From: Candidatus Woesearchaeota archaeon
GTDB lineage: Archaea; Nanobdellota; Nanobdellia; UBA10117; GCA-020343615
Length of the DNA: 64,000 bases
Reading direction: 5' to 3'
NCBI GenBank assembly: GCA_020343615.1
Contig: CP070803.1
Coordinates: forward strand, 855,273 to 919,272
In this document: in pieces, positions 11,787 through 33,893 of the stretch
Numbering within the stretch: the stretch's first letter is position 1
How the letters are laid out: each line of letters begins with the position of its first letter
Program-made: the position numbers and the translations under genes
The notes under the pieces: generated by a model
The model's database searches: none
Told to the model about the DNA's origin: nothing
The model's input: the letters and a program-made list of their open reading frames with translations, nothing else

Positions 11787-11789
11787 AAT

Positions 11790-11814
11790 TAAGAAGAAAT
11801 AAGCTCTGGTTTTA
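11790..11814 (+). repeat. 25-nt repeat family, copy 1 (TAAGAAGAAATAAGCTCTGGTTTTA)
   Basis: Starts right after the stop (11815-11817) of the minus-strand M23 peptidase gene. 28 nt (11787-11814) are identical to copy 3. Confidence 0.8.
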
Positions 11815-12297
11815 TTACTTATCTTCTATACCCTGAAAACTTCCTATAGGAGTTTTCCAGCGGATTTCAAGAGTTTTATAATTTTTTAAATCCTTCAAGT
11901 ATTTATGAACCTCAAAATGAAGATGTGGACCTAAATGTGCAATCCAACCAGTTTCTCCAGAATACCCTATAATCTGTCCTTCTTTTACTTCTTGCCCTTT
12001 TTTTACTAGAGCTCCATCCTTTCTTATATGTTCATATATTGAATATTCCTCATTTTGATGTCTGAGTTCTATAAAGTTGCCATATTTATCGTACTTTTTA
12101 TCAGGTCCGCCAGTATCTGAATCTTGATTAACATCAACTACAATACCATCTAAGGATGCTTTGATCGGTGTTCCTATTGGAACTATAAAATCAACTGCAT
12201 TTTTTAATCTACCGACATGTGCGGGGGACTCGTTATATTTTATTTTTACAGTATTGTTCAATTCAATAGGACAGCTGTACTCATTTTTTGTTTTCAT
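11815..12297 (-). CDS. M23 family metallopeptidase (LytM domain), no signal peptide
   Basis: 160 aa. H..(x)..D (HVGRLKNAVDF), GYSGETGW and HLHFEV zinc-ligand motifs. Confidence 0.8.
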   Translation of the reverse strand: MKTKNEYSCPIELNNTVKIKYNESPAHVGRLKNAVDFIVPIGTPIKASLDGIVVDVNQDSDTGGPDKKYDKYGNFIELRHQNEEYSIYEHIRKDGALVKKGQEVKEGQIIGYSGETGWIAHLGPHLHFEVHKYLKDLKNYKTLEIRWKTPIGSFQGIEDK

Positions 12298-12325
12298 AAA
12301 TAAGCATTAATAATTCTTTTTATTT

Positions 12326-12346
12326 GAGAAGAAATAAGCTCTAGGC
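12326..12346 (+). repeat. 25-nt repeat family, copy 2 (degenerate: GAGAAGAAATAAGCTCTAGGC)
   Basis: Abuts the stop (12347-12349) of the minus-strand ORF 12347..12688. Forms an 11-bp hairpin with the ORF 3' end. Confidence 0.6.
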
Positions 12347-12688
12347 TTATTCTTCCTTTTTAGGTAACTTACATATATATGTTAAAGAATCTAGTTCTAA
12401 TTTACCTTGTTCTGCTAATATCTTGCTACGATTCCGTATTATACTGGTAAAGTTATTATCATAAACAGCCTCTAAATATTTTATTTTTTGCTCAGACCCT
12501 GCATATAGTTCTAATACATCTTTAACAGGTCTATCAATTGAAGATAGTGATGCGTGTGAGTCTTCTTCTAAAGTTTTTAATATTAGCGCATCTAGAATGG
12601 GATCTATTTCGCTTGTGTTAGGTATAGTATCTTTAATTTTCCCCAATAGTTTTCTTGTATCTACTTTATTTAGGTCTATCTCTTTCAT
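12347..12688 (-). CDS. hypothetical protein
   Basis: 113 aa ORF. No recognisable motif. Confidence 0.35.
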   Translation of the reverse strand: MKEIDLNKVDTRKLLGKIKDTIPNTSEIDPILDALILKTLEEDSHASLSSIDRPVKDVLELYAGSEQKIKYLEAVYDNNFTSIIRNRSKILAEQGKLELDSLTYICKLPKKEE

Positions 12689-12746
12689 TTTTACAGATTA
12701 CTACTAAATAATAAGGTATATAAAGATTTCTTTGAAGAGAAAAATT

Positions 12747-13298
12747 ATGAAAATCCGAAAATACAGGAGGAAAGAACTCTTAGGAATAATACCTAATCTA
12801 AAGAATAAGACTTTATTAGATATTGGTGCAAGCAATTGTTACTCATTTAATTGGGCTTATAATAGATTAGCTAAAAATAATGGAAAGAATATAATTCTAG
12901 TTGATATAAATTATGGAAAGGAAATTAATAAATACATATTCTCCGAAAATGCTATTTGTGCGGATGCAAAGGATTTACCTTTTAAAAATAATAATTTTGA
13001 CATAGTTACAAGTGGTTGGCTATTAGACTATTTTAAGGGTAAAGAACTGGAAAAAGTAGTAAATGAATCATCAAGGGTTATCAAACCAAAAGGATATTTT
13101 ATTGGTGATGTTCCGGTACATCCTGAAAAAACTGAAGAAGATATTATATTATTTACAAGAAAGTTTCAACCACAAATAGAAGAATATAGAAAACTAATGC
13201 AGAATAATAATCTTAAAATCTTGCAAGATGGTTTAGGTTTTGAAAATTATGAGATTGTTAATCATTTGGTTTATTATTTTGTAGCACAGAAAGCATAA
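12747..13298 (+). CDS. class I SAM-dependent methyltransferase
   Basis: LLDIGASNC (motif I), DAKDLPF.NN.FDIV (motifs II/III) and VIKPKGYF. First ATG is at 12747 (the track uses TTG at 12732). Confidence 0.7.
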   Translation: MKIRKYRRKELLGIIPNLKNKTLLDIGASNCYSFNWAYNRLAKNNGKNIILVDINYGKEINKYIFSENAICADAKDLPFKNNNFDIVTSGWLLDYFKGKELEKVVNESSRVIKPKGYFIGDVPVHPEKTEEDIILFTRKFQPQIEEYRKLMQNNNLKILQDGLGFENYEIVNHLVYYFVAQKA

Positions 13299-13344
13299 CA
13301 AGAAATAAGTAAAATTTTTATTAATAAATAACGTATAAATTAAA

Positions 13345-13704
13345 ATGAGCGGATATTTTAATGGCAAGGATGAATATTTTATACAAGACGAGTATAAATT
13401 AATTAAAGAAGTAATAAAAAGTAAAGATAAGGAGTTATCAGAAATAATGAAGGCGATTAAAGAGGTCGGCATTATTTTAGATACTGCTCTCACGGTCATA
13501 GAATATTTAGAAGGCTTACCACATGTAAGCGGAAGAAAACTAAAACATTCGCTAAAAAAAATAAGAGAATATACTGAGTTTCTAGAAGAAGAGTCAAAAA
13601 AAGCTGCGGTAGACGAAAAACATGTTTTAAGGTTCAATAAGATTAGCTATAAGCTACTTGAAAGAGCAAAAAAAGATTTAGAACAAAATAAAATAAGACT
13701 ATGA
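13345..13704 (+). CDS. small helical protein, tandem paralog A
   Basis: 119 aa. The C-terminal half (..EE.KKA...E.......KLLERAKKDL) resembles the next ORF. Overlaps the next ORF in an ATGA. Confidence 0.4.
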   Translation: MSGYFNGKDEYFIQDEYKLIKEVIKSKDKELSEIMKAIKEVGIILDTALTVIEYLEGLPHVSGRKLKHSLKKIREYTEFLEEESKKAAVDEKHVLRFNKISYKLLERAKKDLEQNKIRL

Positions 13705-14030
13705 AAGAAATAAAAGAATTAGAGGATATAAGGAAATGTGCAGATGCTGAGCTAGTAGAACTAAAACGAGCATTAAAATTGATACGAGACATAGAATTTA
13801 TTTCTTATGATGTAATCCAGCAATTAAGATTCTTTCCATGTAGAAATAAACAGGAACTAAAGGAAGTACTTGAAGACTTAGAGAAACATATAAGACGTCT
13901 TGAGGAATATAATAAGAAAGCATTCATAGAAGAGCGAGGTGCCTTTAAATTAGAAAATACAATAAGAAAATTAGTTGAAAGGGCTAATAGAGATATAGCT
14001 CATTATGAAAATAAACTTAAAACATTTTAA
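13701..14030 (+). CDS. small helical protein, tandem paralog B
   Basis: 109 aa. ..LEEYNKKAFIEE......KLVERANRDI aligns to paralog A. Confidence 0.4.
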   Translation: MKEIKELEDIRKCADAELVELKRALKLIRDIEFISYDVIQQLRFFPCRNKQELKEVLEDLEKHIRRLEEYNKKAFIEERGAFKLENTIRKLVERANRDIAHYENKLKTF

Positions 14031-14142
14031 CCTTTTTCTTAGATTCTACCCAGTGTTTAGGGAACCGGGATTTTTATTCTTACTATCTAATTAAAAAAAA
14101 CCTTTTTACATAATATTATACTATTATATTAATGTTAATGTA

Positions 14143-16866
14143 ATGATTGGAGAAGGAAAGATAAAATTATTTGGTTCTGAAGACTATAAAAAAAGCGTAG
14201 AAGAAATAATCAAACAACTAGATAGTTCTGTAACTAAAGGTTTACCTAAATTCGAAGTTGATGAAAAAAGGAAAAGATATGGTTTTAATAGGGTAGAAGC
14301 TGAAAAACCTCCTTCATTTACTTATTTTTTCTTAGACCACGCTCTTGAATTTGTATCAATTCTTTTGATTAGTATTTCTATAGTATCTTTTTCAACTTAT
14401 GTTCTGTTTACCCCAACAATTGAAAGACTAGCTGAGGGATTTATAGTAACTACAATAGTATTGATTAGTATATTTTCTGGAGCTTATCAAGACCATAAAT
14501 CAGAGAAAACTGCTCATAAACTTAAAAAAATGGTTATGATGAGTAAAGTTACCGTACTCAGAAATGGATCTTATAAAGAAGTTGATTCTGAAGAATTAGT
14601 TCCAGGAGACATTGTACTGTTAAAAACTGGTGATAAAGTGCCTGCGGATATTAGATTAATTAAAGCTGACGATTTAGAGATTCAAGAATCTAATTTAACT
14701 GGAGAAGGTAGACCTTCAATTAAGCATTCTAGGATTATTACTGAAGATAAACCTATTTCTGGAAGAGAAAACATGGCCTACATGAATACATATGTAACTA
14801 GAGGAAACGGTAAGGGTGTAGTAGTCGCCATTGGTACAAAAACTGAGTTTGGATTAATCAGTGAACAAAGCAAGGAGGTACCCAAACATAGAGCTCCATT
14901 TCTAGATGAAATTCAGAGTGCTGCTAGAAAAATAAGTTACTTTGCATTAGTACTTGTGTTTTTATCTTCAATAACATTTCATTTCTATGGTAGAACTAAC
15001 TATCAAGTATTTATGCTAGCTGCGGCTCTGGTAATTGGAGCAATTCCTGCTGCACTTCCTATTACTGTGACTTACTCTCTTACTCATTCTATGAAGATGC
15101 TGGCTCGTAAGAATGTCTTAGTAAAGAACCTTCCTTTCTTGACGTCAGTAGGAAGTGTGGATGTTATATGCACTGCAAAAACAGGGACTTTAACTGAAAG
15201 TAAAATGAGTGTACAAAAAATATTTCTACCAGGACATAAGGAAACATTAAATCCGAAAAGCTTTGATAAAGATGAAAGCTACGAGCTTATTAGATGCGCT
15301 CTCCTAACAAATGAGGCTGAATTTAATTGCGAACGTAAGGAGTATATCGGGGATCCAAAAGACATAGGTTTACTTGAATTCTTAAAATCTAAAGGTGTAA
15401 ATGTAGATGATATATTAAAAGAATACTACGTTAAGGGTTTTTTGCCTTTTTCATCTGATAAAATGATTACTCAAGCTCTAGTTAAGCTTGATAAAGATGT
15501 AATAAGATATAGTAAAGGACGTCCAAAAACTATAGTTAGTAGATGCAGTAAAATACTCGTGAATGGTGAAATTAAAGATTTTACAGATGGGTGGAAGAAT
15601 AAGGTAAAAAAAGTAGTTAGTGAATTCTCAAAGTATTCTCTAAATAACTTAGCTTTTTCCTGTAAATATGTAAAAAAAGAAGGTTTAGGTGAACATACTA
15701 AAGGAGATGTGTTCATAGGAGTTGTTGGGGTAAGGGACTCTGTCAGACATGGAGTAAGAGATGCTATTGAAACTTGTTATGGTGCGGGAATAGAGATAAA
15801 AATGATTACTGGTGATGATAAGAAAACAGCTATATCTGTAGCTAAAGAATGTGGTTTTAGGAATATAAGGGCTATAAATTGGAATGAAATAAAGAACGCC
15901 TCTGAAGAAGAATTAAAGGAGATTGTGAGTAATAACAACGTCTTCGCTGAGATGGATCCTATGTTCAAGATAGAAGTTGTTAAGACTCTTCATAAGATTG
16001 GTAAAAAGGTTGCAATTACTGGTGATGGTATTAATGATACTCCTGCAATGCATGCTGCTGAAGTAGGTATCGCTATGGGTAAACATGGAAGTGATATTGT
16101 AAAGGATGCTGCAGATATAATATTACTTGATGATTCTTTCCCATCAATAAAGGAAGCAATAAAATACGGGAGAACTTCATTATCAAATGTAAAGAAATTA
16201 ACTAATTATTTATTAACTGCTAATTTTTTCGAAGTTATTGTATTATTCTTAGCTTCATTGGCTGGCTTTACACCTCTAAGAGCAATACAAATCTTATGGG
16301 TCAACTTCGCTACTGATGTATTCCCTGCCGTTGGGTTGAGTACAGACCCTCCTCATCCAGACATAATGAAAAAAAAGCCAGTTGGTAAGAGGGAGAAGAT
16401 ACTAACTAAAAGAGTACGTTATATGTTAGTTGGAATGGGTATTAAAAAAGTGGCCATTGTCTTCCTAGTTTTCTTCATCATACTTTTCTTATCTAATGGG
16501 GAGACTACGATATTCGGTATACGCGGGGACCTAGTTCTTGCGCAAGCTTCTGTATTTGCGTGGTTAGGAGTATTTCACATAGACAGGATAATTGCCATAA
16601 GATGGGACGAGGGGTGGAAGTGGAAAGACGTATTTATCAACAAAACAGTAAACTACGCTCTCCTATGGCCTATATTAACTAAGTTTATAATCTTATACAC
16701 TCCTCTATGCGGTTTCGCATTGTCTGGTTTCTTCCATGCGAAACCTTTACCTATTTGGGTTTGGGCTATAATAAGTATACTTCTCTTATTATCGGTTGTT
16801 TTAGCTGTAATATTAGTGAAGATAATCACTAAACAATTGGGAAAATATAGCGATATAGAGTATTAA
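14143..16866 (+). CDS. P-type ATPase (type II cation-transporting-like) with AKTGT in place of DKTGT
   Basis: 907 aa with TGE(G), ICTAKTGTLT, KGRP, MITGD and TGDGINDTPAM motifs and about 10 TM helices. Confidence 0.85.
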   Translation: MIGEGKIKLFGSEDYKKSVEEIIKQLDSSVTKGLPKFEVDEKRKRYGFNRVEAEKPPSFTYFFLDHALEFVSILLISISIVSFSTYVLFTPTIERLAEGFIVTTIVLISIFSGAYQDHKSEKTAHKLKKMVMMSKVTVLRNGSYKEVDSEELVPGDIVLLKTGDKVPADIRLIKADDLEIQESNLTGEGRPSIKHSRIITEDKPISGRENMAYMNTYVTRGNGKGVVVAIGTKTEFGLISEQSKEVPKHRAPFLDEIQSAARKISYFALVLVFLSSITFHFYGRTNYQVFMLAAALVIGAIPAALPITVTYSLTHSMKMLARKNVLVKNLPFLTSVGSVDVICTAKTGTLTESKMSVQKIFLPGHKETLNPKSFDKDESYELIRCALLTNEAEFNCERKEYIGDPKDIGLLEFLKSKGVNVDDILKEYYVKGFLPFSSDKMITQALVKLDKDVIRYSKGRPKTIVSRCSKILVNGEIKDFTDGWKNKVKKVVSEFSKYSLNNLAFSCKYVKKEGLGEHTKGDVFIGVVGVRDSVRHGVRDAIETCYGAGIEIKMITGDDKKTAISVAKECGFRNIRAINWNEIKNASEEELKEIVSNNNVFAEMDPMFKIEVVKTLHKIGKKVAITGDGINDTPAMHAAEVGIAMGKHGSDIVKDAADIILLDDSFPSIKEAIKYGRTSLSNVKKLTNYLLTANFFEVIVLFLASLAGFTPLRAIQILWVNFATDVFPAVGLSTDPPHPDIMKKKPVGKREKILTKRVRYMLVGMGIKKVAIVFLVFFIILFLSNGETTIFGIRGDLVLAQASVFAWLGVFHIDRIIAIRWDEGWKWKDVFINKTVNYALLWPILTKFIILYTPLCGFALSGFFHAKPLPIWVWAIISILLLLSVVLAVILVKIITKQLGKYSDIEY

Positions 16867-16873
16867 ATTCTTC

Positions 16874-17314
16874 TTAGCTTAACTTCTTTGCACGATATAA
16901 TAAGTCAATATCTAGTGATTTTGGCTTAAAACATTCAATTGCATATTTAACAGCAGTTTCTATATCAAATGGTTTACATGAAAAGATATTTACAAAAGCG
17001 CCATCTGTACGATAAAAGACTGTCGCCTGACTTTCTTTAAGAAAAATGTATCCGTTATCTTTAAGAAAAATAAACTTACTATTTTTAATAATGTAGTTAC
17101 CACAGGATTGCATTCCAATTTTTTGTGGTAATTCTTGTAAAAAGTTCTCTAAACTTTTTTGATTATTTAAACTATCATATAGCCTTAATGTTAAAGTAGG
17201 CATATTTCTGTATGCATGCTCATCAATCTTTACGCAATCTTTAGAAAGCTTATCTGTAATGTCCTTTAAGAAGACAGTCATATTAGAATCTCCAACTTTA
17301 AAATACTTTTCCAT
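16874..17314 (-). CDS. pyruvoyl-type decarboxylase-like protein (AdoMetDC/SpeH-like fold), tentative
   Basis: 146 aa. ..FLKESQATVFYRTDGAFVNIFSCKP.. resembles the ..ESH.S.HT.PE....A.D.F(T/S)CG.. core of SpeH. Confidence 0.4.
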   Translation of the reverse strand: MEKYFKVGDSNMTVFLKDITDKLSKDCVKIDEHAYRNMPTLTLRLYDSLNNQKSLENFLQELPQKIGMQSCGNYIIKNSKFIFLKDNGYIFLKESQATVFYRTDGAFVNIFSCKPFDIETAVKYAIECFKPKSLDIDLLYRAKKLS

Positions 17315-17315
17315 T

Positions 17316-18245
17316 CTAAGAATGAATTTGGCCTAAGGCTTCTTTAAATTCTGAGCGGTAAGGCTTAAAAGGACCTCCTAATATCTCCTCAAGATGTGGA
17401 AACTGGCTGTGTATTTCCAGTTGTGGCCAAGAAGGATCATATCCTGATAATTTATGACCTATTTTTATATTCTTAATAAGATCCTTTACTTTAGCTAATG
17501 GTAGTTTTGTTATCTCAGACATTTCCTTAGGACTCTTTTCATGCCACATATACATGTAATATAAATCATCCAACTGTCTAATTGTAGCACCATAGATTTT
17601 TTCATCTGTACTGTCTCCTACAAATCCGCTATGAGGTGCTTTTTTGATTATTTTATCAGGTACTCCTAAGTGTTTTGCAACATCAAATAAAACAGATTTG
17701 AACATTGCACCTGTTGGATAGATAGTGGCAAATCCTGTACCCTGAACAAAACCATAAGCCCATTCAGTATAATTATCTGTACCTGCAGTAATATATTCAA
17801 TTTGGTCAGCATAGTAATTTTGTATTATACATCTAGCTCTTTGTACTAAGAACCCATCAGCTTTCTTTTTAAGTACGCTATTTTCACGCCCAAAACTAAA
17901 TTTATCTATATACTGACTTACTTCGTTACTAATATCTATTAAACTATAACCAACTCCCGCAGTTCTAGCAGTTAGTAATCCGTCTTCAGTCTCTGATTCT
18001 AGAGTAATTAGTGAGTCTTCATCGGACGGGTCTTCATCAGACCAAATATGACAAGGCATTAATAGAGCATAAACCTTTTTAGGACCTAAAGCATCTTTAC
18101 ATAGATACAGAGTAGTAGCAGAGTCGATACCGCCACTCAGAGAAACAATAATTCCTTTTGCTCCAAGTTCTTCAGTTCTAGTTCTGATGAAGTCAACACA
18201 TTCATTCGTTATTTCTTTAATATTTTGACTTGGTAAATTTTCCAT
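17316..18245 (-). CDS. nadE: NAD+ synthetase (PP-loop ATP pyrophosphatase, divergent)
   Basis: SLSGGIDSATT PP-loop, QRAR, GTDNYTEWAYGF and K.PHSGF..DSTDE blocks matching the NadE layout. Confidence 0.7.
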   Translation of the reverse strand: MENLPSQNIKEITNECVDFIRTRTEELGAKGIIVSLSGGIDSATTLYLCKDALGPKKVYALLMPCHIWSDEDPSDEDSLITLESETEDGLLTARTAGVGYSLIDISNEVSQYIDKFSFGRENSVLKKKADGFLVQRARCIIQNYYADQIEYITAGTDNYTEWAYGFVQGTGFATIYPTGAMFKSVLFDVAKHLGVPDKIIKKAPHSGFVGDSTDEKIYGATIRQLDDLYYMYMWHEKSPKEMSEITKLPLAKVKDLIKNIKIGHKLSGYDPSWPQLEIHSQFPHLEEILGGPFKPYRSEFKEALGQIHS

Positions 18246-18832: not shown

Positions 18833-18844
18833 CTTTTGATTAAA

Positions 18845-19087: not shown

Positions 19088-20573
19088 AGGGAAAATATTA
19101 TTGGATGACTATTTCAAGAGAAATAGTTTAGTCGAAGCTGATATAAATTCTTTTAATGAATTTGTAGACTGGAGATTGCAAAAATTAGTTGATGAGTTAG
19201 GCTCCCCAACTCCAGCAGTAGTTCCTGCAGAAACTGAAGAAGTTAAAATTGAATTCGGAAAAATCCGAATTGGTAAACCTTCGGTAATCGAAGCTGATGG
19301 TGTAAGAAGATTGATACTTCCTTCTGAAGCAAGATTGAGAAAATTGACATATGCTGCCCCACTATACTTAGAGATAGGTTTAGTTATAGATGGAATAGAA
19401 AGGGAAAGAAGAGAAGTAAGAATCGGAGAAGCACCAGTTATGATAAAGTCTAAGATCTGTCCTCTAAGCAAAATGAGCAGAGAGGAGCTTATTGATGTGG
19501 GAGAAGATCCTTATGATACTGGCGGATACTTTATAATTAATGGAACTGAAAGAGTAATAATTTTCCTAGAAGACTTAGCACCTAATACTTTATTCGTAGA
19601 AAAGAGCATGGGTGCTTCTACACATTCAGCAAAGATTTTTTCAGAAAGAGGGTTATACAGAATTCCTCATACTGTAGAAATTAAAAAAGATGGAATGATA
19701 CTCGTGTCCTTTACATCTCTACACAAGGTACCTATTTTTGTATTGATGAGGGCATTAGGTCTTAAAAGCGATGCAGATATAATCAAAGCGATCAATTCAG
19801 ATCACGGTGAAGAAGAAATATTCTTGAACTTATATGAATTCTTAGAGATAAAAAACGAAAATGATGCTAAACAATTTATTGCAAGAACTATGGGTCTTGG
19901 TTCCCAACCAGATGAAAGAAAAATAGAGAGGATTAATTATCTAATAGACAGCTTCCTATTCCCGCATATTGGAGGCAGTGAAAAGGATAGGATAAAGAAA
20001 GCTTACTTCTTGGGAAACATGGTTCGTAAGTTGCTCTTGCTGAAGCATGGCGAAATCGAAGAAGATGATAAAGACCATTATATGAACAAAAGAATAAGAT
20101 TATCCGGTGACTTGCTTGAGGATCTTTACAGAAAAAGTCTAAAAAGTTTTGTTAAGGATATGCTTTATGTTTTCCAAAGAGGAGTTAGAAGAGGGAAGAT
20201 ATTACCTATAAGTTCTATTGCTACAACTCGCGTAGTCACTTCTAGAATAAGGAGAAGCATGGCTACTGGAAGCTGGTCTTCTGGTAGAGAAGGTATTAGT
20301 CAGAGACTAGACAGAGAAAATGCTCTTTCATCTCTATCACACTTAGGAAGAATCGTATCTCCTCTGCCTGCTTCTCAGGAGAATTTTAAGGCGAGAGAAT
20401 TACATCCTACTCATTGGGGAAGATTGTGCCCAGTAGAATCTCCAGAAGGAAAAAATATTGGCTTAAGAAAAAATATATCTTTAATTGCGGGAAACACACC
20501 TGAAATAAAGGAAGAAGAACTAAAAAAGAATCTAAAAGTTATAAAAGAACTTGGACTTGAGGAAATTGGTTAA
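19080..20573 (+). CDS. rpoB2: DNA-directed RNA polymerase subunit B'' (Rpo2N)
   Basis: 497 aa. N-terminal half of the B/Rpb2 homolog (..GYFIINGTERVI.., ..HP.HWGR.CP.E.PEG.NIGL.KN..). Confidence 0.9.
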   Translation: MRKGKILLDDYFKRNSLVEADINSFNEFVDWRLQKLVDELGSPTPAVVPAETEEVKIEFGKIRIGKPSVIEADGVRRLILPSEARLRKLTYAAPLYLEIGLVIDGIERERREVRIGEAPVMIKSKICPLSKMSREELIDVGEDPYDTGGYFIINGTERVIIFLEDLAPNTLFVEKSMGASTHSAKIFSERGLYRIPHTVEIKKDGMILVSFTSLHKVPIFVLMRALGLKSDADIIKAINSDHGEEEIFLNLYEFLEIKNENDAKQFIARTMGLGSQPDERKIERINYLIDSFLFPHIGGSEKDRIKKAYFLGNMVRKLLLLKHGEIEEDDKDHYMNKRIRLSGDLLEDLYRKSLKSFVKDMLYVFQRGVRRGKILPISSIATTRVVTSRIRRSMATGSWSSGREGISQRLDRENALSSLSHLGRIVSPLPASQENFKARELHPTHWGRLCPVESPEGKNIGLRKNISLIAGNTPEIKEEELKKNLKVIKELGLEEIG

Positions 20574-20574
20574 A

Positions 20575-22374
20575 ATGACTGATGTATTCTTAAACGGGAC
20601 ATTAATAGGAACCGTGAAGAACGGTGAGGAATTTGCTAGAAATTTAAAAGAAAAAAGAAGAGATGGTAGTTTATCAAAATACCTCAACGTACATGTAGAT
20701 GAAGCTCTAAATACTGTTAATATATTTCTAGATAAAAATAGAGTAATAAGGCCTTTAATAAGAGTAGAGAACGGAAAGTCTCTATTAACTGAAGAGCATC
20801 TCGAACAAGTAGAAAGAGAAGAACTAACGTGGGAAGACTTAGTGAATCAAAATATTGTAGAATACCTTGATCCTTCTGAAGAAGAAAATGCGTATATTGC
20901 TCTTGATGAAAAAGATTTGAGTAAAGAACATACTCATTTGGAAATAGACCCTGTTGGTATTTTTTCAATATGTACTTCTCTAGTTCCTTATGCCAACTTT
21001 AACATGAGTTCAAGATTAAATAGAGGTCAAAAAACTCAAAAACAGGCTATGGGAGTTTATGCTCTTAACTTCTTAACCAGACTTGATACTAGTGTAAATA
21101 TTTTACACTATCCTCAGAGACCTCTTGTTAGAAGTTATACTGAAAAATTACTAGGAGAAGGTAAGTTAGCTGGCCAGAATATAGTCATAGCAGTAACAAA
21201 TTATGAGGGATACAACATGTCAGATGCCATTGTCCTCAATAAATCATCTATAGAAAGAGGTTTTGGATTATCTACTTATTATAGACCATATGAAGCTACT
21301 AAGTCTAAATACCCTGGAGGTCAGACTGATAGAATATGCATTCCTGACAAAGAAGTTAGAGGTTATGGTATAGAAGAAGAATATCGTTACCTTGAAGAAG
21401 ATGGAATAATCTATCCTGAAGTTGCAGTTAAAGATGAAGAAGTATTAGTAGGTAGAACTTCTCCACCTAGATTCTTAGGAAAACTAAGAACCTTTGGTAA
21501 TGCTACTTCAACAACAAATGATACTTCTGTAAGAATAAGAAGTGGTGAAGATGGAATCGTTTCTAAAGTAATCGTAACTGAAAATGAAGAGGGAGATAGA
21601 ATAATAACTGTTAAAATAAGGGATACGAGAAAGCCTGAAATTGGAGACAAGTTCGCATCAAGACACGGACAGAAAGGAGTCGTAGGAAGAATTGTGTCTA
21701 GAGAAGACTTACCTTTCACTGCTTCTGGAATTGTTCCTGATGTTGTTTTCTCACCTAATAGTCTTCCTAAAAGAATGACTTTAGGACACATTATTGAAAT
21801 ACTTGCTGTCAAGGTAGGAGCATTAAATGGAAGGTAAATTAATGGTACTAGTTTTGATTCTGAAAATGTTGATGACTTAAGAAACGAATTGCTTTCTCTA
21901 GGTTTTAGGGAAGATGGAAGCGAGACTATGTACGATGGAAGGACTGGTGAAGAATTTGAAGCAAGAATTTTCATAGGTAACATGTACTATTTAAGATTAA
22001 AACACCAGGTTAGTGATAAAATACAAGCTAGATCAAGAGGTCCTGTTCAATTATTAACAAGACAGCCAACAGCTGGAAAGGCTAAACAGGGTGGTCTAAG
22101 ATTCGGAGAGATGGAAAAAGAAGCGTTAATTGCTCATGGTTCATCTATGTTGATGAAGGAGCGGTTCAGTTCTGATAGAGCCGAATTTTATGTATGCAAT
22201 AAATGCAAGAATTTAGCTATATTTGATGAATTTGATAACAGAGCTAAATGCGATATTTGTGGAGAGAAGACGAATATATCTAAGATAGAGCTAGCTTATG
22301 CTTTTAAGCTCTTACTAGATGAATTGAAAAGCTGTGGGATAAACCCAAAGTTAATATTAAAGGATAAATTCTAA
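20575..22374 (+). CDS. rpoB1: DNA-directed RNA polymerase subunit B' (Rpo2C), frame interrupted by one in-frame TAA at 21835-21837
   Basis: Track ORFs 20551..21837 and 21889..22374 share a frame. Conserved blocks (GDKFASRHGQKG, ARSRGPVQLLTRQP, GGLRFGEME, C-terminal Zn ribbon) run straight across the stop. Confidence 0.85.
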
Positions 22375-22375: not shown

Positions 22376-26276
<3,901 letters not shown>

Positions 26277-26717: not shown

Positions 26718-26766
26718 ATAGAAAGCTTTAAAATAGGAAATTACTACTTATTAAGAGGTGATTATA

Positions 26767-27192: not shown

Positions 27193-29635
27193 TCAGGAAA
27201 TAAAATTTTTCCCTCTAGATATAAGTTATCAAATTTCTGAAGAAGGAGGAGTTGAGATAAGTATCTTCGGAATAACCTTAGATAGAAAAAAGATTAGGAT
27301 TTTCGACTCTTTTCTTCCATATTTTTGTGCTATAGTTGATAAAAAAGCAGATGCTGAAAAATTAATCCAAAAAATAAGGGAAACTGAATTAGTTGTTGAT
27401 GTAAAATTAGAAAGCAAGAAGTATATACAGGACAACGTAAAGGCGATTAAGATATTTGCGAAAAATCCTTCTGATCTTAGACAAATAAGAGAAAAATTGA
27501 GAAATTTTGAGGGGATATCTGAAATAGCAGAAGGGGATATCTCGTTAAGGAAGAAGTATCTGATAGATAACAACATAACCCCTTATACCCTATGTGGGGT
27601 AGAAGGTAGAATAGAAAGAAGAGGCTTTGGAGATATAGATCTAACAGTTATTGCAGAAAAAATTACGCGGATTAGTTCTGACTTGATAGGGAATCCAAGA
27701 GTTCTTGCCTTTGATATTGAAACACTCTGCATGGGATCTGCCCCAAACGCAAAAGAAGATCCTGTGATTATGTGCTCTTTCTACGGTTCTAATAATTTTA
27801 AGAGAGTTATAACTTGGAAACCAATAAGAAACGCTCCTGAATATATGAGATTCGTAGGTGGAGAACAGGAACTAATAAATGAAATAATAAGAACTATAAG
27901 GGAATTCGACCCGGAGATACTAGTAGGTTATGGCTCTGACTTTTTTGACTTTCCGTACATCATTAATCGTACCAAGAAATACAAGATGCCTCTAAACATT
28001 GGCTGGGACGGTTCTGAACCCATGACTAGGTTAAGATTAGGGAGAGGAACAACTAAATTAAAGGGAATAGTTCACTTGGATATATCTCAATTTATAAGAA
28101 ATGTGCTAAGCCCTAACTTAGAATCTGAGAGGCTCGATTTAAATAGAGTGGGCAAGGAACTTGTAGGTATAGGTAAGTCCTTAGATCTTAAAGATACAAG
28201 TATAAATGTCCTTTGGGATGGCACTAATGAAGATTTACTTAAATTAGTAGAATATAATTTAAGAGACTCTGAAATAGTTTTTAAGATAGTTGAAAAAGTA
28301 CTTCCTACACAATTCCAATTAGCAAAGATAATTAATCTACCTTTGTTTGATGTAAATCGTATGACTTATAGTCAATTAGTAGAGCAATTCTTACTAAAAA
28401 ATGCTCCAGATTTTAACCAGGTTATTCCTAGAAGACCACTGTATTCTGAAATAAAAAAACGAAGACAGCAGACTTATGTTGGTGGTTTTGTATTTGAACC
28501 TGAGGCTAATCTTTATGAAAACATAGGAAGTTTTGACTATAGATCTCTATACCCTTCATTAATATCTGCTTACAATATCGGACCAACTACTCTTAATTGT
28601 GATTGTTGTGGTCCTTCATCTGAAAAGGTGGAGGTTGATGGTGAAGAATATTGGTTTTGTGGCAAGGAAGATGGATTCTTGTCTATATTAATACGGGATT
28701 TAGTAGATAGAAGAAAGAGAATAAAGCAAATACTGAAGGACACTAAAAAAACTGATTCAAGTTATCAAGAATTAAACGCCCTATCCTATGCTCTAAAGAC
28801 TTTAGCTAATGCTACTTACGGTTATTTAGGCTTTGCAGGAGCTAGATGGTATTGCTTAGAATGTGCAAGAGCAATTACTGCCCTAGGAAGAAAGTATATT
28901 GATCAAGTAATAAAAACTGCGCATAAATTGGGCTTTGAACCTATTTATGCAGATACTGATGGTGCTTTTATTCTCTTAAAAAATAAAGAAGGTCAAGTTG
29001 ATAAGTTTCTAAAAAAGATTAATTCTACGTTGCCCGATCCTATGGAATTGGAATATCACGGTAAGTATAAAAGAGGTTTATTCTTGGGTAAAAAATCCGG
29101 GGCTGGTGGTGCAAAAAAAAGATACGCATTGCTCTCAGATGACGGAGATATTATCCTAAAAGGAATAGAAGCGATTAGAGGAGATTGGTCTCCAATAGCA
29201 AAAAAAACGCAAAGAGAGGTTGTTGAAATTATATTAAAAGAAAAATCAGTAGATAAGGCTGCAGAATACGTAAAGAATCTGATAGATAAGCTGAAAAGTA
29301 GAGACGTTCAGGTATATGACCTTGCAATTGAGGCTACTTTAACGAGAGACCTTAGAAACTATGAGTTCAAAGGTCCGCATGTAGCTGCAGCAGAAATCGC
29401 TAAAAGAAAGGGCTATTTTGTAAGACGGGGTTTCATCGTATCGTATATTGTTTGTAGTGGTTCTGGTAAGATAAGTGAGAGGGTAAAATTAACAGAGGAT
29501 GCTAGAGTCCAAGATTATGATATAAACTATTACATAAATCATCAAATTATAAGGTCTGTTTACAAGATATTTGAATTATTTAATTATCCAATAGAAAAAC
29601 TAAAATCAGGCCAGTCCGAGCTTACTAACTGGTAA
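27185..29635 (+). CDS. polB: family B DNA polymerase
   Basis: 816 aa with Exo I FDIET, Exo II/III blocks, motif A DYRSLYPS, motif B K.LANATYGY and motif C YADTDG. Confidence 0.9.
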   Translation: MNSQEIKFFPLDISYQISEEGGVEISIFGITLDRKKIRIFDSFLPYFCAIVDKKADAEKLIQKIRETELVVDVKLESKKYIQDNVKAIKIFAKNPSDLRQIREKLRNFEGISEIAEGDISLRKKYLIDNNITPYTLCGVEGRIERRGFGDIDLTVIAEKITRISSDLIGNPRVLAFDIETLCMGSAPNAKEDPVIMCSFYGSNNFKRVITWKPIRNAPEYMRFVGGEQELINEIIRTIREFDPEILVGYGSDFFDFPYIINRTKKYKMPLNIGWDGSEPMTRLRLGRGTTKLKGIVHLDISQFIRNVLSPNLESERLDLNRVGKELVGIGKSLDLKDTSINVLWDGTNEDLLKLVEYNLRDSEIVFKIVEKVLPTQFQLAKIINLPLFDVNRMTYSQLVEQFLLKNAPDFNQVIPRRPLYSEIKKRRQQTYVGGFVFEPEANLYENIGSFDYRSLYPSLISAYNIGPTTLNCDCCGPSSEKVEVDGEEYWFCGKEDGFLSILIRDLVDRRKRIKQILKDTKKTDSSYQELNALSYALKTLANATYGYLGFAGARWYCLECARAITALGRKYIDQVIKTAHKLGFEPIYADTDGAFILLKNKEGQVDKFLKKINSTLPDPMELEYHGKYKRGLFLGKKSGAGGAKKRYALLSDDGDIILKGIEAIRGDWSPIAKKTQREVVEIILKEKSVDKAAEYVKNLIDKLKSRDVQVYDLAIEATLTRDLRNYEFKGPHVAAAEIAKRKGYFVRRGFIVSYIVCSGSGKISERVKLTEDARVQDYDINYYINHQIIRSVYKIFELFNYPIEKLKSGQSELTNW

Positions 29636-29981
29636 TTTCTGATACTTTTCTTAAAGCTTGTAAGGTTTCACCTACTAAATAAGCTTCTTTGCCATTTTTC
29701 CAGATCACGTATCTCTTTGTTTTTAATTCTCTACTACCTGTTATGCTTGCGGCAATGGAGGGTAGTGCGATACCTTTTTCGATTAACTCTATGTTTTTCT
29801 TAATTGACTCGCTTATTATCGAGTTAACCTCATGATAAGAATTATCAGATGCTCTAAAAGAGAGAACAAAATTACTAGGTGATTTTATAAATTTAGTTAA
29901 TTTTTTAGTAGGGTTGTCTATCTCGGCGATATTTTCTATTCTATAAACCCCTTTATTTATTTCTTTTATAGCGATTATCAT
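29625..29981 (-). CDS. hypothetical protein
   Basis: I prefer the ATG at 29981 (MIIAIKEINKG..), which is preceded by GAGGT and a TTTATAAAATATA box. No recognisable motif. Confidence 0.35.
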   Translation of the reverse strand: MIIAIKEINKGVYRIENIAEIDNPTKKLTKFIKSPSNFVLSFRASDNSYHEVNSIISESIKKNIELIEKGIALPSIAASITGSRELKTKRYVIWKNGKEAYLVGETLQALRKVSEITS

Positions 29982-30084
29982 AGTGTTACCTCTAAGTGGT
30001 GTATATTTTATAAATCTTTCTACTGCGTAAGCTTTGCATAATAAATGCATCCTGCATATTTATTTATACATCTTGCATATTAAT

Positions 30085-30109
30085 TAAGAAGAAATAAGCT
30101 CTGGTTTTA
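30085..30109 (+). repeat. 25-nt repeat family, copy 3 (orphan, not behind a gene end)
   Basis: TAAGAAGAAATAAGCTCTGGTTTTA. 30082-30109 is identical to 11787-11814. Lies between divergent gene starts. Confidence 0.8.
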
Positions 30110-30121
30110 GTAAAAGAAAGG

Positions 30122-30131
30122 TTTATAAATA
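30122..30131 (+). promoter_or_regulatory. TATA-box candidate for the 30170 gene
   Basis: TTTATAAATA about 40 nt upstream of the ATG. Confidence 0.3.
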
Positions 30132-30169
30132 GAATTTTATCACGATATAGTGTTTATAGCAAATAAAAA

Positions 30170-30700
30170 ATGGTAGATAAGTATGTAGCTAGTAAAGAAG
30201 GAAAAGACCATAATACCACTATTAGCAACTTTAGCAACTTAGCTACGAATTTATCTGATAGAAGACATCAAAGTCTTGAAAGGAAAGTGAATGATTTCTA
30301 TGGAGATGTTTTAGGAGTAGCTATGGGTGTTTTATTGAGCTCAACCAATGCCAAAAAAGAAGTAGCGGATTATTTAAAAACTGTCATAAACGGAGTTAAA
30401 AACAGTTACGATGCTATAGAAAAAAGTGATTTACAAACCGCTCGTCAAGAATTTGAGAAAACAGGTAAAGAAATTTTTAAGATTGCGGATGTTCTCGATA
30501 AAGCTGATTCAGGAAGTCGAAAAATACGAAACATCGTATACAATAATTATTTTATTTTACTAATAGATGATCAGAGTAAGCATCAATTTGATTCAATAAA
30601 TCAAATAGACATGTCAAAAATTAATAAAGAGCAAGTAATCGGTGAAGGTGGTATAATTGATACTTATGAAAACTATATTTTACCTAAGCTAAATAATTAA
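30170..30700 (+). CDS. hypothetical helical protein
   Basis: 176 aa ORF. No recognisable motif. Confidence 0.3.
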   Translation: MVDKYVASKEGKDHNTTISNFSNLATNLSDRRHQSLERKVNDFYGDVLGVAMGVLLSSTNAKKEVADYLKTVINGVKNSYDAIEKSDLQTARQEFEKTGKEIFKIADVLDKADSGSRKIRNIVYNNYFILLIDDQSKHQFDSINQIDMSKINKEQVIGEGGIIDTYENYILPKLNN

Positions 30701-30702
30701 TT

Positions 30703-31299
30703 CTAATCAAATTTAACAGATAGAGCTTTTAGTTCCTTTTTTAATTGATTTATTGATTTAAACAGAATAGTTTTCATTCCTAACTCTTTTGCAGGAATTA
30801 AATGGTCCTCTTGATCATCAATAAATACACATTCTCTTGCAACTACACCTATTCTCTCTAAGGTCATTTCATATATTCTTTTTTCGGGCTTTATTATTCC
30901 TAACTCGTGTGAAAGAACAAGTACATCAAATTGAGAATACCATCCGAGCTTATTGAATCTTACTGTATGGTTTTTCTCTGAATTTGAAAGAATTGCAAGC
31001 TTATAATTTTTCTTGAGTTTTGAAATAAGTTCGGTCATCTCTTTAGTCGGTGCCCAAGTTGTTAGCCATATTTCTTTTATTTCTTTCATTTGTTTTTTAG
31101 AAATCGGAACCTGAAAGAATTTTCTAAAACACTCTTCAAGAGATTTACGACCTCTATTTAAATCCAAATCAAGTATAACTTTCTTATTAGAATTAAATTT
31201 TTTATTAATTCCTAGAATTTTATGAGAATTATTTACAAAATCAGCAACATTTCCTTTTAAATATACCTTTCCGACATCAAATATTATTGCTTTTATCAT
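30703..31299 (-). CDS. HAD-superfamily hydrolase
   Basis: IIFDVGKV (motif I), LSNS (motif II) and FIDD (motif IV). Confidence 0.7.
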   Translation of the reverse strand: MIKAIIFDVGKVYLKGNVADFVNNSHKILGINKKFNSNKKVILDLDLNRGRKSLEECFRKFFQVPISKKQMKEIKEIWLTTWAPTKEMTELISKLKKNYKLAILSNSEKNHTVRFNKLGWYSQFDVLVLSHELGIIKPEKRIYEMTLERIGVVARECVFIDDQEDHLIPAKELGMKTILFKSINQLKKELKALSVKFD

Positions 31300-31515
31300 A
31301 ACAACTTAAATACATTATAAATATAAAAATTTTCTATCTAGCCTTTTCTTTCCAGAATCCTAGAACACTGGTTCATATCAATTTCAACATCATGCTCGTA
31401 AACTGTTTTAACCAATACGCATAGATTATAACAAATACTTTTAAGGTATAGTTCATTAACTTGAGCCTGAAAGTTCCTAGATAGATTTTTATAAGATATT
31501 AGGAATCATTAAGTT

Positions 31516-32040
31516 ATGATTGAAGGAAGAGCTATTATTGAGAGTATAAAAAAGACAAGAGCCTCGGTAGAATCCTTAGGAGGTCAGTTCAAGAGTAATT
31601 ATATTGGAAGAGATATAATCTTTCTTCCTGAAAGAGAAGACTATAATTTAAGTGATGATTTCGTGAGAGTAAGAGTAAATATCAAAAGTAATTGGCCAAC
31701 TAAGAGGGTTATTTTAACTAGAAAACAGACAGACTTCAGAGAAATTGGAAAAGTGGATAATGTAATTCTCAGTGAAGAATTTGATACTGAAGAAGAAGCC
31801 TTTTCCTTTATAGAAAAGAACCTGCCAGAATTTCAAAAAGGATTTGAATACGAAAGAGAAGGCTGGCAATATCAACTTAAGCATAATAGAATCTTCATAG
31901 AAGATATTAAAGGTTGGAGACCTTCTGTTGAGATTGAAGCAAAGAGTGAGGAAGAATTGAAAGAGCTTTTTGATAAAATTGGAATTCTAGAATTAGTCAA
32001 AGATTCTATCCCTAAAATTATGAGACGAATTCTCAGATAG
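31516..32040 (+). CDS. CYTH-like (triphosphate tunnel) protein, tentative
   Basis: 174 aa. The C-terminal ..FIEDIKGW..SVEIEA.. resembles the CYTH terminal strands, but the N-terminal ExExK motif is not clear. Confidence 0.3.
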   Translation: MIEGRAIIESIKKTRASVESLGGQFKSNYIGRDIIFLPEREDYNLSDDFVRVRVNIKSNWPTKRVILTRKQTDFREIGKVDNVILSEEFDTEEEAFSFIEKNLPEFQKGFEYEREGWQYQLKHNRIFIEDIKGWRPSVEIEAKSEEELKELFDKIGILELVKDSIPKIMRRILR

Positions 32041-32073
32041 GTTTTTATAATTATTTAGACACTCATTATAATC

Positions 32074-32601
32074 ATGAGAAATTGGCTAGCTAAAACTAAA
32101 ACAAACCTCTCAGAGAAACTTAAAGATAAACCTACAGACAAAGAAAAAGATGAGAGACTTAAGTTAGAGAAATCAAGTAGAGATGGTTTTCTTGAGTTTA
32201 TTGTAAGTTATGCTAAGCTAGATGAAAAAACAAATGAAGGGTATGTTATGGGTTTTTATAAAGATACATATGTAATAAGCTTTGTGGGGAAAGAGTTATC
32301 TGAAAGTGAAAGTACAGATATAATTCCTTATGAAAACATTAAGAAAAGAATTAGTAAGGTCCCAGATTTTCTTTTCGTTATAGGAAGGGGAATAAAGGGA
32401 GCAAGTGTAGCTAAATATTTTACTGAAATGTTGGACGAGATGGAAATTAGTGATAAAGCTTCATGGGATTTTAAGGATTCCAACTATAAAACACCAGAGA
32501 GAAGTATCACGGAAGCTGAACTAAAAGAAGCTAAAAATCCAGTGGTTATATATCATTTAGAAAAACTAAAGAGATTATGCCCTAAAAAAGATTTAGATTA
32601 A
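32074..32601 (+). CDS. hypothetical protein
   Basis: 175 aa ORF. No recognisable motif. Confidence 0.3.
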   Translation: MRNWLAKTKTNLSEKLKDKPTDKEKDERLKLEKSSRDGFLEFIVSYAKLDEKTNEGYVMGFYKDTYVISFVGKELSESESTDIIPYENIKKRISKVPDFLFVIGRGIKGASVAKYFTEMLDEMEISDKASWDFKDSNYKTPERSITEAELKEAKNPVVIYHLEKLKRLCPKKDLD

Positions 32602-32609
32602 AAGAAGAC

Positions 32610-32634
32610 TAAAACCAAAGCTTATTTCTTCTTA
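32610..32634 (-). repeat. 25-nt repeat family, copy 4
   Basis: Reverse complement TAAGAAGAAATAAGCTTTGGTTTTA. Sits 9 nt after the stop of 32074..32601, between convergent genes. Confidence 0.75.
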
Positions 32635-32651
32635 TTTAGGATTAAAAAAAG

Positions 32652-33185
32652 TTAATTATTCTCTATTTCCTTCAGCACTTCTAATATGTGCTTCACAAAT
32701 ACTATACCTTCATCCTTACATTGTGTATTTCCAGATATTAAAATAGATTTACTATTCGTTATATCTGAGTCAACATAGTCAAAATTAATGAATGTGTCCC
32801 TTTTTGGCGGATTTGTTCTTGTCAGAGTCCATAACTCTGCTTCACCCACACTAAGTTTTTTAAAATATTTATCTTTGTCGGACATATCTTCAGTCTTACC
32901 AGGTATGAATACATATGTGTTCTCGTCTTCTTTAGATAATTTTCCAGGACCGAGATATAATATTTTTTCAGAAATTGAGTTACCACCTTTTATATTAACC
33001 ATCAAATACGCTCCTTTTGTACATGGGTGAAAAACTCCATGTTGAGCTCCATTTATAATTGAATCATTGTAGAACTTAAGTGCGTCGTCATATAATATTC
33101 GGATAATGTTTGTTGGACCTATATTCTTATGTTCAATCACATCTCCAAAGTTTTTCAATTTATTCTCTAGACTATCCTTTACCAT
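32652..33185 (-). CDS. hypothetical beta-rich protein
   Basis: 177 aa ORF. No recognisable motif. Confidence 0.3.
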   Translation of the reverse strand: MVKDSLENKLKNFGDVIEHKNIGPTNIIRILYDDALKFYNDSIINGAQHGVFHPCTKGAYLMVNIKGGNSISEKILYLGPGKLSKEDENTYVFIPGKTEDMSDKDKYFKKLSVGEAELWTLTRTNPPKRDTFINFDYVDSDITNSKSILISGNTQCKDEGIVFVKHILEVLKEIENN

Positions 33186-33236
33186 CTTACATCTTATTAT
33201 CTTCAGGTAAGAAATCTTTATATATTTTATTGGTTA

Positions 33237-33872
33237 GTGATAAATATGATGGAAACTAATGGTTCTAATCTTCCAGCTGCAGATCCTTCACCTTATCTTA
33301 TTCAATTAGATAAATTATTAGATAGTTCTGGGAATGATGAACTTATTCTGTATAATATCCAGCAATTCGCTAAAGACTTCTATGCTGGTGTAAAGGTACC
33401 ACGAACTATCTCACCGATGGAGGGATTAGCATTATTAGTTGATATGTACTCTAGAATTCCAGAAATTGAACCAGTAAAAGATATTAGAGGAGTAGTAAAT
33501 TTTGTTCTTGCCTGCCTTCACGATGTAACTAATGATGATGTCCTAGGAATGCCTGTAACTATATTTAGAAAAGAAGACGATGAACACCCTTACGAACTCG
33601 GATGGTTAGTGAATAGGCAAGAAGAAGGCAGAGTTGATTTATTTCTTCCTGACAACTATTCAATTTTAGATATATACAAAAAAGACAATTTAGGAAGTAA
33701 ACATCTAATGCTAGATGCGAAAGCTCTAAAGAAAGTCGGACCGTATGGAAAAGTAAAATTTAGTGAGAGAAGAGAAAGACCGCCAGAGTCCATAATGTTC
33801 AGAGGATTTGCAATTGCAAATGAAGATATTGGAAAAACATTAGATCAATTTTATAAGGTTGATAAAAACTAA
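33237..33872 (+). CDS. hypothetical protein
   Basis: 211 aa ORF. No recognisable motif. The stop codon is embedded in repeat copy 5. Confidence 0.3.
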   Translation: MINMMETNGSNLPAADPSPYLIQLDKLLDSSGNDELILYNIQQFAKDFYAGVKVPRTISPMEGLALLVDMYSRIPEIEPVKDIRGVVNFVLACLHDVTNDDVLGMPVTIFRKEDDEHPYELGWLVNRQEEGRVDLFLPDNYSILDIYKKDNLGSKHLMLDAKALKKVGPYGKVKFSERRERPPESIMFRGFAIANEDIGKTLDQFYKVDKN

Positions 33873-33893
33873 ACCAGAGCTTATTTCTTCTTA
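33870..33893 (-). repeat. 25-nt repeat family, copy 5
   Basis: Reverse complement TAAGAAGAAATAAGCTCTGGTTTA (one T shorter). Overlaps the stop TAA at 33870-33872. Confidence 0.75.

Follow-up and report, generated by a model that had tools for sequence, protein, structure and literature searches.

Orphan genes of a Woesearchaeota chromosome bracketed by recurring promoter and gene-end modules

Short repeats dispersed between genes are familiar from bacteria, where the REP/BIME, Correia and ERIC families often lie just after stop codons and can have terminator, insulator or promoter roles. Within archaea, the efficiency of transcription termination is set by the U-tract and by the factor aCPSF1, according to one report (PMC8716108). 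For the halovirus HF2, a promoter function was demonstrated for the intergenic repeats, which are 58 bp (class I) and 29 bp (class II) long (PMC8707807); near-identical promoters are also reused before unrelated genes across prokaryotes (PMC3575422). Here we describe a repeat of 25–28 nucleotides (nt), which we call T1, found in a 64,000-nt stretch of the genome of a Candidatus Woesearchaeota archaeon (the window; C1:855273-919272, where C1 is contig CP070803.1 of assembly GCA_020343615.1). With its companion modules T2, P, P2 and P3, T1 forms units around orphan genes, and the reading we favor, with middling confidence, is that T1 is a hairpin-less, sequence-defined terminator or insulator carried by insertion-prone orphan-gene units.

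The source is a single contig of 919,475 bp (32.5% G+C), with a masked part of 4600 N, from a Woesearchaeota (DPANN) genome that has tRNAs with introns and a family-B DNA polymerase (PolB), and the proteins that best match those of this genome carry Woesearchaeota or Nanoarchaeota labels. Genes were called with a home-made codon-usage picker and scorer of open reading frames (ORFs), by which 92% of the genome is coding; completeness is estimated at 84%, and the absence of a gene is therefore not absolute. For comparison we used 40 genomes of the same order or class as the source, all from other families, a set of closer relatives (L070–L073 and L076–L078) represented by short contigs only (~90 kb together), and genome and metagenome collections that were scanned for exact matches. 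To our knowledge, DPANN archaea are uncultured or hard to grow, and both their transcription punctuation and their acquisition of orphan genes are almost wholly unknown.

T1 and its companion modules across the genome

A search of the genome with the core AAGAAATAAGCTCT, allowing at most one mismatch, gave 29 matches, 28 of which were kept as T1 (aATCTAAGAAGAAATAAGCTCTGGTTTTA); the excluded match, at 87537, has one mismatch, lacks the flanking consensus and lies within a called gene. All 28 kept copies are intergenic or overlap merely the last codons of a gene, and their alignment gave the consensus aATCTAAGAAGAAATAAGCTCTGGTTTta, with an information peak in ATAAGCTCTGG. In an unbiased count of 14-mers, with simple sequences set aside, the three that recur most often in the genome belong to T1, T2 and P, and words of T2 and of the reverse complement of T1 (T1rc) are the most enriched 9-mers within 40 nt after stop codons. 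Tabulated genome-wide against stop codons, most of the ~28 copies of the 25-mer lie on a stop codon or no more than ~20 nt from one, and 26 of 28 are within ~110 nt of a called gene or tRNA end; one tRNA-Arg gene, for instance, ends 11 nt before a T1. T1 thus sits where an archaeal intrinsic terminator is expected, at the 3' end of a transcription unit, and the original prediction that it is a shared T-rich terminator or 3'-untranslated region (3'-UTR) module is still the best functional reading.

Genes end at T1 from both sides. Eighteen ORFs end on the T1rc strand (the stop codon lies inside TAAAACC in 13); 13 of these ORFs are driven by P, and among the others are those for an EamA transporter and an M23 peptidase. 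Fourteen ORFs have their ends in T1, or just ahead of it, on the (+) strand; here T1 closes genes for a class-II aminoacyl-tRNA synthetase, a DUF655 protein, a GH15 hydrolase, a NUDIX protein and an FKBP isomerase, and the last three take their final codons, AAG AAA TAA, from T1 itself. The original prediction also held that only accessory genes use the element; this is correct within the window and for one T1 strand, and fails genome-wide because the opposite strand closes conserved genes. Copies behind core genes, which had been named in advance as counting against recombination sites that travel with cassettes, accordingly exist, only for that opposite motif strand. Seven to eight T1 copies make up nearly the entire 21- to 25-nt spacer of convergent genes, which excludes a promoter-only role and makes a gene-end role on both strands the simplest. 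The (+) strand of T1 reads GGTTTT(A), the reverse-complement strand reads TTATTTCTTCTT, with no T run above 3, and T2 reads TTCTTTTAATTCT; the oligo-U tract of archaeal intrinsic terminators typically has 5 or more.

T2 (TAACCTTCTTTTAATTCTAAAT; 19–21 copies) always begins with a stop codon, and its layout, TAA-(A)ACC-[T-rich tract]-TTCT(T)ARAT, is also that of T1rc and agrees with the account of archaeal terminators in PMC8716108 (U-tract, aCPSF1). The 36-nt P module (AAGAAATCTTTATATATTTTATTGGTTAGTGGTGAT; 15 genome copies) joins a transcription factor B recognition element (BRE) and TATA box to a short leader with a GGTGAT ribosome site; both genes of a P pair start within ~27 nt of one TATATA element and, judged from its sequence, P probably acts as a bidirectional promoter for divergent orphan-gene pairs. 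P2 (AGTAAAAGAAAGGTTTTTAAATAG) has 8–10 copies, and P3 is a further promoter module. T1 has no TATA-like 8-mer, whereas P, P2 and P3 do fit the archaeal BRE/TATA pattern. A separate family, GTAAAAAGGTTTCTATTTAG-CAAGGTTTTAATATAA, has ~25 copies, all on the minus strand, at 241–245, 413–419 and 545–567 kb of the genome; as a terminator it was rejected, gene starts lying 23–26 nt off one side and 35–44 nt off the other, which points to a bidirectional promoter region.

T1 and P have the word AAGAAAT in common, which in P belongs to the BRE-like part, and this might suggest that T1 is itself a weak antisense promoter, or else an operator or upstream site to which a protein binds, and that it would co-regulate an orphan regulon with P and exert antisense control at gene ends. 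Such a role would also suit the fixed spacing of T1 upstream of the BRE/TATA of P2 or P3 at 6–7 loci, the fact that its most conserved part, AAGCTCTGG (CCAGAGC core), is not T-rich, and the nearly perfect coupling by which an ORF that has P at its 5' end also has T1 at its 3' end, which suggests joint control. We regard it as improbable, however: T1 lacks a TATA-like 8-mer of its own, the copies that fill convergent spacers need no sense promoter, an identity over 25 nt is far beyond that of usual operators, and the motif is not palindromic.

The modules combine according to a fixed grammar. Twelve of the 15 P copies drive mutually unrelated ORFs (105–443 aa) whose stop codon lies inside T1rc (TAAAACCAGAGC...), and a thirteenth precedes a pseudogene that still reaches T1; the divergent partner ORFs start 14–28 nt from the other side of P, and 9 of 14 end in T2. 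At 6–7 other loci, counting one in the window, T1 is followed at fixed spacing by P2 or P3, then by a gene and then by T2. Pairs in the same orientation (T1>...T2>) within 2.5 kb number 18 versus 0.8 expected, and the only other T1/T2 arrangements are two fused T2.T1 junctions and one pair in opposite orientation. We count ~16–18 units of 173–2008 nt, which hold a divergent orphan pair on a shared P, a single gene behind P2 or P3 or, once, a single leftward gene. The T1, T2 and P modules form 29 clusters, and tandem runs consist of no more than three units, as after the tRNA-Arg at 696–698 kb. T2 ends in TTCTAAAT and T1 starts with ATCTAAG, and the fused junctions retain one copy of TCTAAAT.

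The genes inside the units are unusual in their content. None of 20 unit ORFs (10 cassette and 10 partner ORFs) matched a Pfam family at gathering score, versus 6 of 10 random size-matched genes without modules, and for the 208-aa unit ORF 33246..33872 of the window we found no homologue among 5.8e9 word-indexed proteins and only one weak partial match among 1.84e9 representative proteins scanned with HMMER. Apart from one cassette pair and one partner pair the unit ORFs are mutually unrelated, and for the same reason we rejected the idea that paralogous genes have dragged along a shared UTR. In the cassette pair, a pseudogene (genome 256347-256742) of a 113-aa ORF of the window has a premature stop at codon 42 and indels, while its P and T1 are near-intact; homology to the window copy spans P to T1 and extends no further.

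The repeat in the window and the same loci in relatives

Within the window the 25-mer matched four times at ≤3 mismatches and never in 100 shuffles, and the fifth, degenerate copy that had been reported was recovered at 12325-12349 (+) with 4 mismatches. Copies 1 and 3 are indeed identical over 28 nt (AATTAAGAAGAAATAAGCTCTGGTTTTA), and copies 1, 2, 4 and 5, as first described, abut or overlap the stop codons of 11815..12297, 12347..12688, 32074..32601 and 33237..33872 in a constant relative orientation. Copy 1 (11787..11817, +; 25-mer 11790-11814) lies 75 nt 3' of a tRNA-Tyr gene, and its 3' end abuts the stop codon of the convergent Peptidase_M23 gene (11815..12297, −; 160 aa), which has its own promoter and no P module. 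Adjacency to tRNAs was rejected as a sign of integration, as two of 28 T1 copies are ≤300 nt from a tRNA versus 11% of intergenic positions, a difference that is not significant. Copy 2 (12322..12349, +), with the degenerate sequence GAGAAGAAATAAGCTCTAGGCTTA, overlaps the stop codon of the orphan ORF of a P-ORF-T1 unit (12347..12688, −; 113 aa), the one whose pseudogene paralogue at 256 kb has the same P and T1 flanks. The P module of this unit (12697..12732, −) is diverged (6 mismatches) and has bidirectional BRE/TATA elements, a leader and a Shine-Dalgarno site; the divergent partner ORF (12747..13298, +; 183 aa) starts 14 nt from it.

Copy 3 (30082..30109, +; 25-mer 30085-30109) is the sole copy in a purely divergent region. 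It is fused to a P2 module, AAAAGAAAGGTTTATAAATAG (30112..30132, +), with the same spacing as at five other loci, and behind the pair lies the gene that P2 drives, 30170..30700 (+; 176 aa, no Pfam family). Further on, the ORF 32074..32601 (+; 175 aa, no Pfam family above the cut-off) has its stop codon 8 nt ahead of copy 4 (32610..32634, −), which is fused to a T2-like module, ACTTTTTTTAATCCTAAAT (32634..32652, −; 3 mismatches), in a back-to-back gene-end junction of convergent genes; the T2-like module lies on the stop codon of the partner ORF 32652..33185 (−; 177 aa, no Pfam family), which thus ends in it. A P module with 3 mismatches (33209..33244, +) precedes the 208-aa orphan ORF 33246..33872 (+), whose stop codon is overlapped by copy 5 (33869..33893, −). 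The third P copy of the window starts at 63996 and runs past the window end.

Two loci could be compared with relatives, and at both the units are missing there and homology breaks at the outer edge of T1. At the PolB locus of the closest relative, L071 (73% PolB identity), PolB is followed by a small overlapping gene, a spacer of ~100 nt and a PAS gene. Its upstream TTGCA-repeat region aligns with the window up to 30090, that is, up to the first bases of T1 copy 3, and alignment resumes at the PAS gene end from ~34346; the DNA that is extra here (~4.25 kb, 30091-34345), of which copy 3 is the left edge, has seven genes and three T1 copies and is flanked by AATTAA(G/A), a sequence that is single in L071. 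In a more distant relative, L072 (61% PolB identity), an NTase/HEPN pair, toxin-antitoxin-like, lies at 12924-13938, exactly at the spot of the T1-bounded block, and this variable spot is therefore an accessory-gene hotspot in three lineages. The second locus is that of the DNA ligase, whose promoter, TAACAAAACACTTTTATT... (TAACAAAACAC...), is shared by this genome, L076 (85% identity) and L078 (73%). In the present genome the promoter is directly preceded by ...CTTCTTAGATT, the outer edge of a T1, and a 143-aa cassette ORF, versus a divergent nitroreductase gene in L076 and L077 and an unrelated 125-aa ORF in L078; neither T1 nor the unit ORF was found at that position in these three relatives. 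The empty sites retain no repeat copy, and neither the ~90 kb of relatives nor the 40 genomes of the order or class contained T1, T2 or P. Based on these comparisons the units look like lineage-specific, recent insertions.

Outside this genome, an exact 28-nt T1 was found on a metagenome contig of 1063 bp (L025), on the stop codon of an unrelated 158-aa gene. A GTPase fragment on this contig is 53% identical to its orthologue here, versus 55–65% for other families of the order, which is weak evidence (48 residues only) that L025 is not from a close relative. T1 and P had no match in IMG/VR, and matches to the T2 19-mer are single and scattered in AT-rich contigs; a viral origin was rejected on these grounds. 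In an unrelated bacterial Sedimentisphaerales metagenome-assembled genome (OY763926.1, 4.6 Mb; L015, L020 and L022–L024) a different intergenic repeat, AAGAAAYAAGCTSNGGNTTC followed by a GC-rich hairpin, occurs in >100 copies, five of which share an exact 19- to 20-mer with T1; the shared core may be due to chance aided by purine heptad repeats.

Other features of the window were noted alongside. The 70 nt between tRNA-Tyr and T1 copy 1 (11716-11786) repeat a GC-rich 9-mer of the tRNA 3' part, TTCCGGGAG, and hold an anticodon-arm-like hairpin, GAACTGTACTTATAGTTC; they may be a tRNA fragment left after rearrangement. Such 9-mer matches are frequent, 28% of random windows having one to a tRNA tail. 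Three to four TTGCA(T/C)A repeats, 11–18 nt apart, lie at 30030-30080 (4410-4460 in L071), upstream of the small gene 29625..30050 that overlaps the PolB end. As this position is conserved in the closest relative, the repeats are probably an operator array, and they are similar to a TGCACATAAAT triple at another site of the genome. The genes for RNA polymerase B' (20551-22374) and A' (22376-24913) each have one in-frame TAA, which splits them into 428+161 and 653+169 aa, whereas both are single ORFs in L070 and L072 (599 aa and 845–846 aa), a pattern consistent with read-through or recoding, or else with a pseudogene or a problem of assembly.

Structure, mobility and termination

The original prediction had drawn hairpins between the repeat and the 3' ends of the genes before it. 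Such hairpins can be drawn, and they do not exceed chance: 18 real gene ends joined to T1 gave a mean fold of -5.7 kcal/mol, versus -6.0 kcal/mol when the canonical motif was joined to the 3'-terminal 30 nt of 1045 other genes (Mann-Whitney p = 0.67). The Lys/Glu-rich gene ends of an AT-rich genome complement CTTATTTCTTCT by composition, and the hairpin was rejected. The modules by themselves fold like shuffles, as single-stranded DNA (ssDNA) T1 reaching -0.5 kcal/mol (z = +0.67), T2 0 kcal/mol and the fused T2.T1 -2.8 kcal/mol (z = +0.23 versus 200 shuffles). A search with Rfam 15 found four tRNAs only in the window and nothing at E <= 1 near T1 in L025.

These results bear on the idea that T1rc works at the RNA level, as a 3'-UTR element (a stability or translation signal, or a small-RNA target) of the orphan genes driven by P. 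Its orientation goes with a single class of promoter (13 of 15 P modules) and the motif begins on the stop codon; the lack of structure above chance, alone or with gene ends, the lack of an Rfam family in the window or L025, and the use of the other strand at gene ends equally often (14 copies) nevertheless argue against it, and complementarity between 5'-UTR and 3'-UTR amounts, by inspection, to only 6 bp. We consider this role quite improbable.

A different possibility is that a mobile gene cassette has T1 and T2 as its two ends and that their terminator look is secondary. The whole T1>[promoter + ORF(s)]T2> would then excise, and insert behind or just inside the 3' ends of resident genes, and a fused T2.T1 would be a joint between two cassettes or that of a circular form. 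The polar bracket is independent of the orientation of the genes within it, T1 lying upstream of a promoter in 6 units and T2 in 1; units stand in tandem, three in a row after the tRNA-Arg; in fused junctions the T2 end and the T1 start share a single TCTAAAT. In two frames T1 covers the final codons of conserved genes, the proteins ending in ...SKKK (FKBP), ...SKNK (NUDIX) and ...IKK (GH15) before the stop codon. The units are missing from relatives with breakpoints at the T1 edge at 2 of 2 loci compared, the insert at the PolB locus has its AATTAA(G/A) flanks, an exact T1 occurs in a distant organism and in none of the 40 genomes of the order, and the two paralogous cassettes can be aligned only over the stretch from P to T1.

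Against mobility stands the lack of an enzyme. The recombinase search of the genome, which the original prediction had proposed, gave one PF00589 match, an XerA-sized frame of 285 aa at 450 kb, and no PF00239, so that a tyrosine recombinase of XerA type does exist, 400 kb distant and not near any module, and a serine recombinase was not found; nor was an integron integrase, in a genome estimated to be 84% complete. T1, T2 and T2.T1 have no hairpin or inverted repeat, and no clear target-site duplication was seen beyond one AT-only 6-mer. Only one contig carries the proteins of this genome, relatives would in any event lack a lineage-specific gene together with its terminator, and neither T1 nor P is in IMG/VR. 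Taking both sides together we hold mobile cassette ends to be possible, though unlikely. Rather doubtful is the fuller proposal that they mark a previously undescribed archaeal mobile cassette, a self-contained unit of one or two orphan genes with its own promoter, ribosome site, stop codon and terminators, which would insert behind resident gene ends or a few codons into them, giving stops in all frames, and move among Woesearchaeota lineages without a recognisable integrase or hairpin site.

Known site types were considered in turn. The suggestion that T1 resembles an attC site travelling with its cassettes survives in part: the cassette structure is strongly supported by P-ORF-T1 coupling, the bracket order, the orphan content and the breakpoints in relatives, whereas the attC mechanism is not supported. 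No imperfect palindrome, ssDNA hairpin or integron integrase was found, each unit brings a promoter, the units lie scattered, and empty sites are without a repeat. A dif-like Xer site was rejected since T1, by inspection, is not a two-arm inverted repeat. Nor does T1 fit a repeat of the REP or MITE type: there is no palindrome, T1 and T2 are only loosely alike when inverted, and the one candidate for a target-site duplication is the AT-only 6-mer of the insert at the PolB locus.

We return to T1 as a terminator or insulator, the reading that we favor. On this reading T1 would halt RNA polymerase in either direction of transcription, with no need of a hairpin. Read as TAAAACCAGAGCTTATTTCTTCTTAGAT, it would give the leftward unit gene a stop codon and a pyrimidine/U-rich tract and, read as ...AAGAAATAAGCTCTGGTTTTA, it would give the upstream resident gene or tRNA stops in three frames and a U4-5 tract; T1 would thereby insulate the unit from its neighbours, and T2 would do the same job for rightward unit genes. 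Where T1 lies upstream of a promoter, it could be an insulator versus divergent or incoming transcription, or a relic of insertion. The identity over 25–28 nt, which includes the non-T core, exceeds what an oligo-U terminator needs, and suggests either a dedicated protein reader or young copies that have spread with the units.

Several observations weigh against this reading. While the position, orientation and coupling of the units, their bracket grammar, orphan content, absence from relatives and lack of structure were observed, termination is deduced from position only, and the gene calls behind that position are those of a home-made ORF scorer. T runs reach no more than 3 on T1rc and 4–5 on the (+) strand and so are short by the standard of classical archaeal terminators, and the conserved core of T1 is not T-rich. 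In 6 units T1 lies at fixed spacing upstream of a P2 or P3 promoter, and at copy 3 of the window no gene ends on either strand, situations that the insulator or relic argument alone covers. Finally, behind most tRNAs of this genome stands a plain TTTT or TTTA and no T1, and T is not generally enriched after the stop codons of the genome; a general house terminator was rejected on these two grounds, and the missing enrichment makes T1 and T2 a special case.

Significance and comparison with known systems

The grammar of promoter module, ORF and gene-end module in a fixed bracket marks ~6% of module-bearing genes as one class, whose members appear to lack known relatives and to be missing from sister lineages. 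Terminators of the T1 and T2 kind, if that is what the two are, would be sequence-specific and hairpin-less, which would point to sequence recognition, of DNA or RNA, by a factor in archaeal termination; if they are cassette ends, they would represent a new route of gene gain in reduced genomes. Either way the modules offer ready parts (promoter, leader, terminator) for genetic tools in this group, and a cheap sequence tag with which the same gene class can be found in metagenomes. In the limited literature searched we found no description of a paired promoter and gene-end vocabulary that brackets orphan genes in an archaeal chromosome.

The described systems each match a part of this arrangement. 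Integron cassettes with their attC sites resemble T1 units in having a short conserved element right behind the stop codons of unrelated accessory ORFs, and in short tandem runs; the T1 units differ in having no palindrome or ssDNA fold, no IntI, promoters of their own, 29 clusters and not one array, and empty sites without a site copy. REP/BIME, Correia and ERIC repeats are palindromic and fold, whereas T1 and T2 do not fold and form an ordered pair around genes. Archaeal oligo-U terminators assisted by aCPSF1/FttA, as described in PMC8716108 and in the 3'-end maps of Haloferax (PMC7237163), are like T1 in their place at stop codons or unit ends, in the T- or pyrimidine-rich sense strand and in being hairpin-free, and their frequent make-up of two T-rich tracts is a further likeness; T1 is unlike them in its 25- to 28-nt identity, its non-T core CCAGAGC and its short T runs, and in serving only ~3% of genes, using both strands and being always paired with T2 in a fixed order. 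The putative mobile promoters (PMC3575422) share with the present modules highly similar regulatory DNA beside non-homologous genes, sometimes across distant taxa, although here the reuse concerns both gene ends and is statistically coupled. The HF2 repeats, lastly, are near-identical intergenic sequences of 29–58 bp in an archaeal replicon that punctuate transcription units and occur nowhere else in the genome, much as T1 does; they are, however, promoters in a virus genome, conserved in a virus genus, whereas T1 lies at gene ends in a cellular chromosome, and P, P2 and P3 are closer counterparts of the HF2 repeats than T1.

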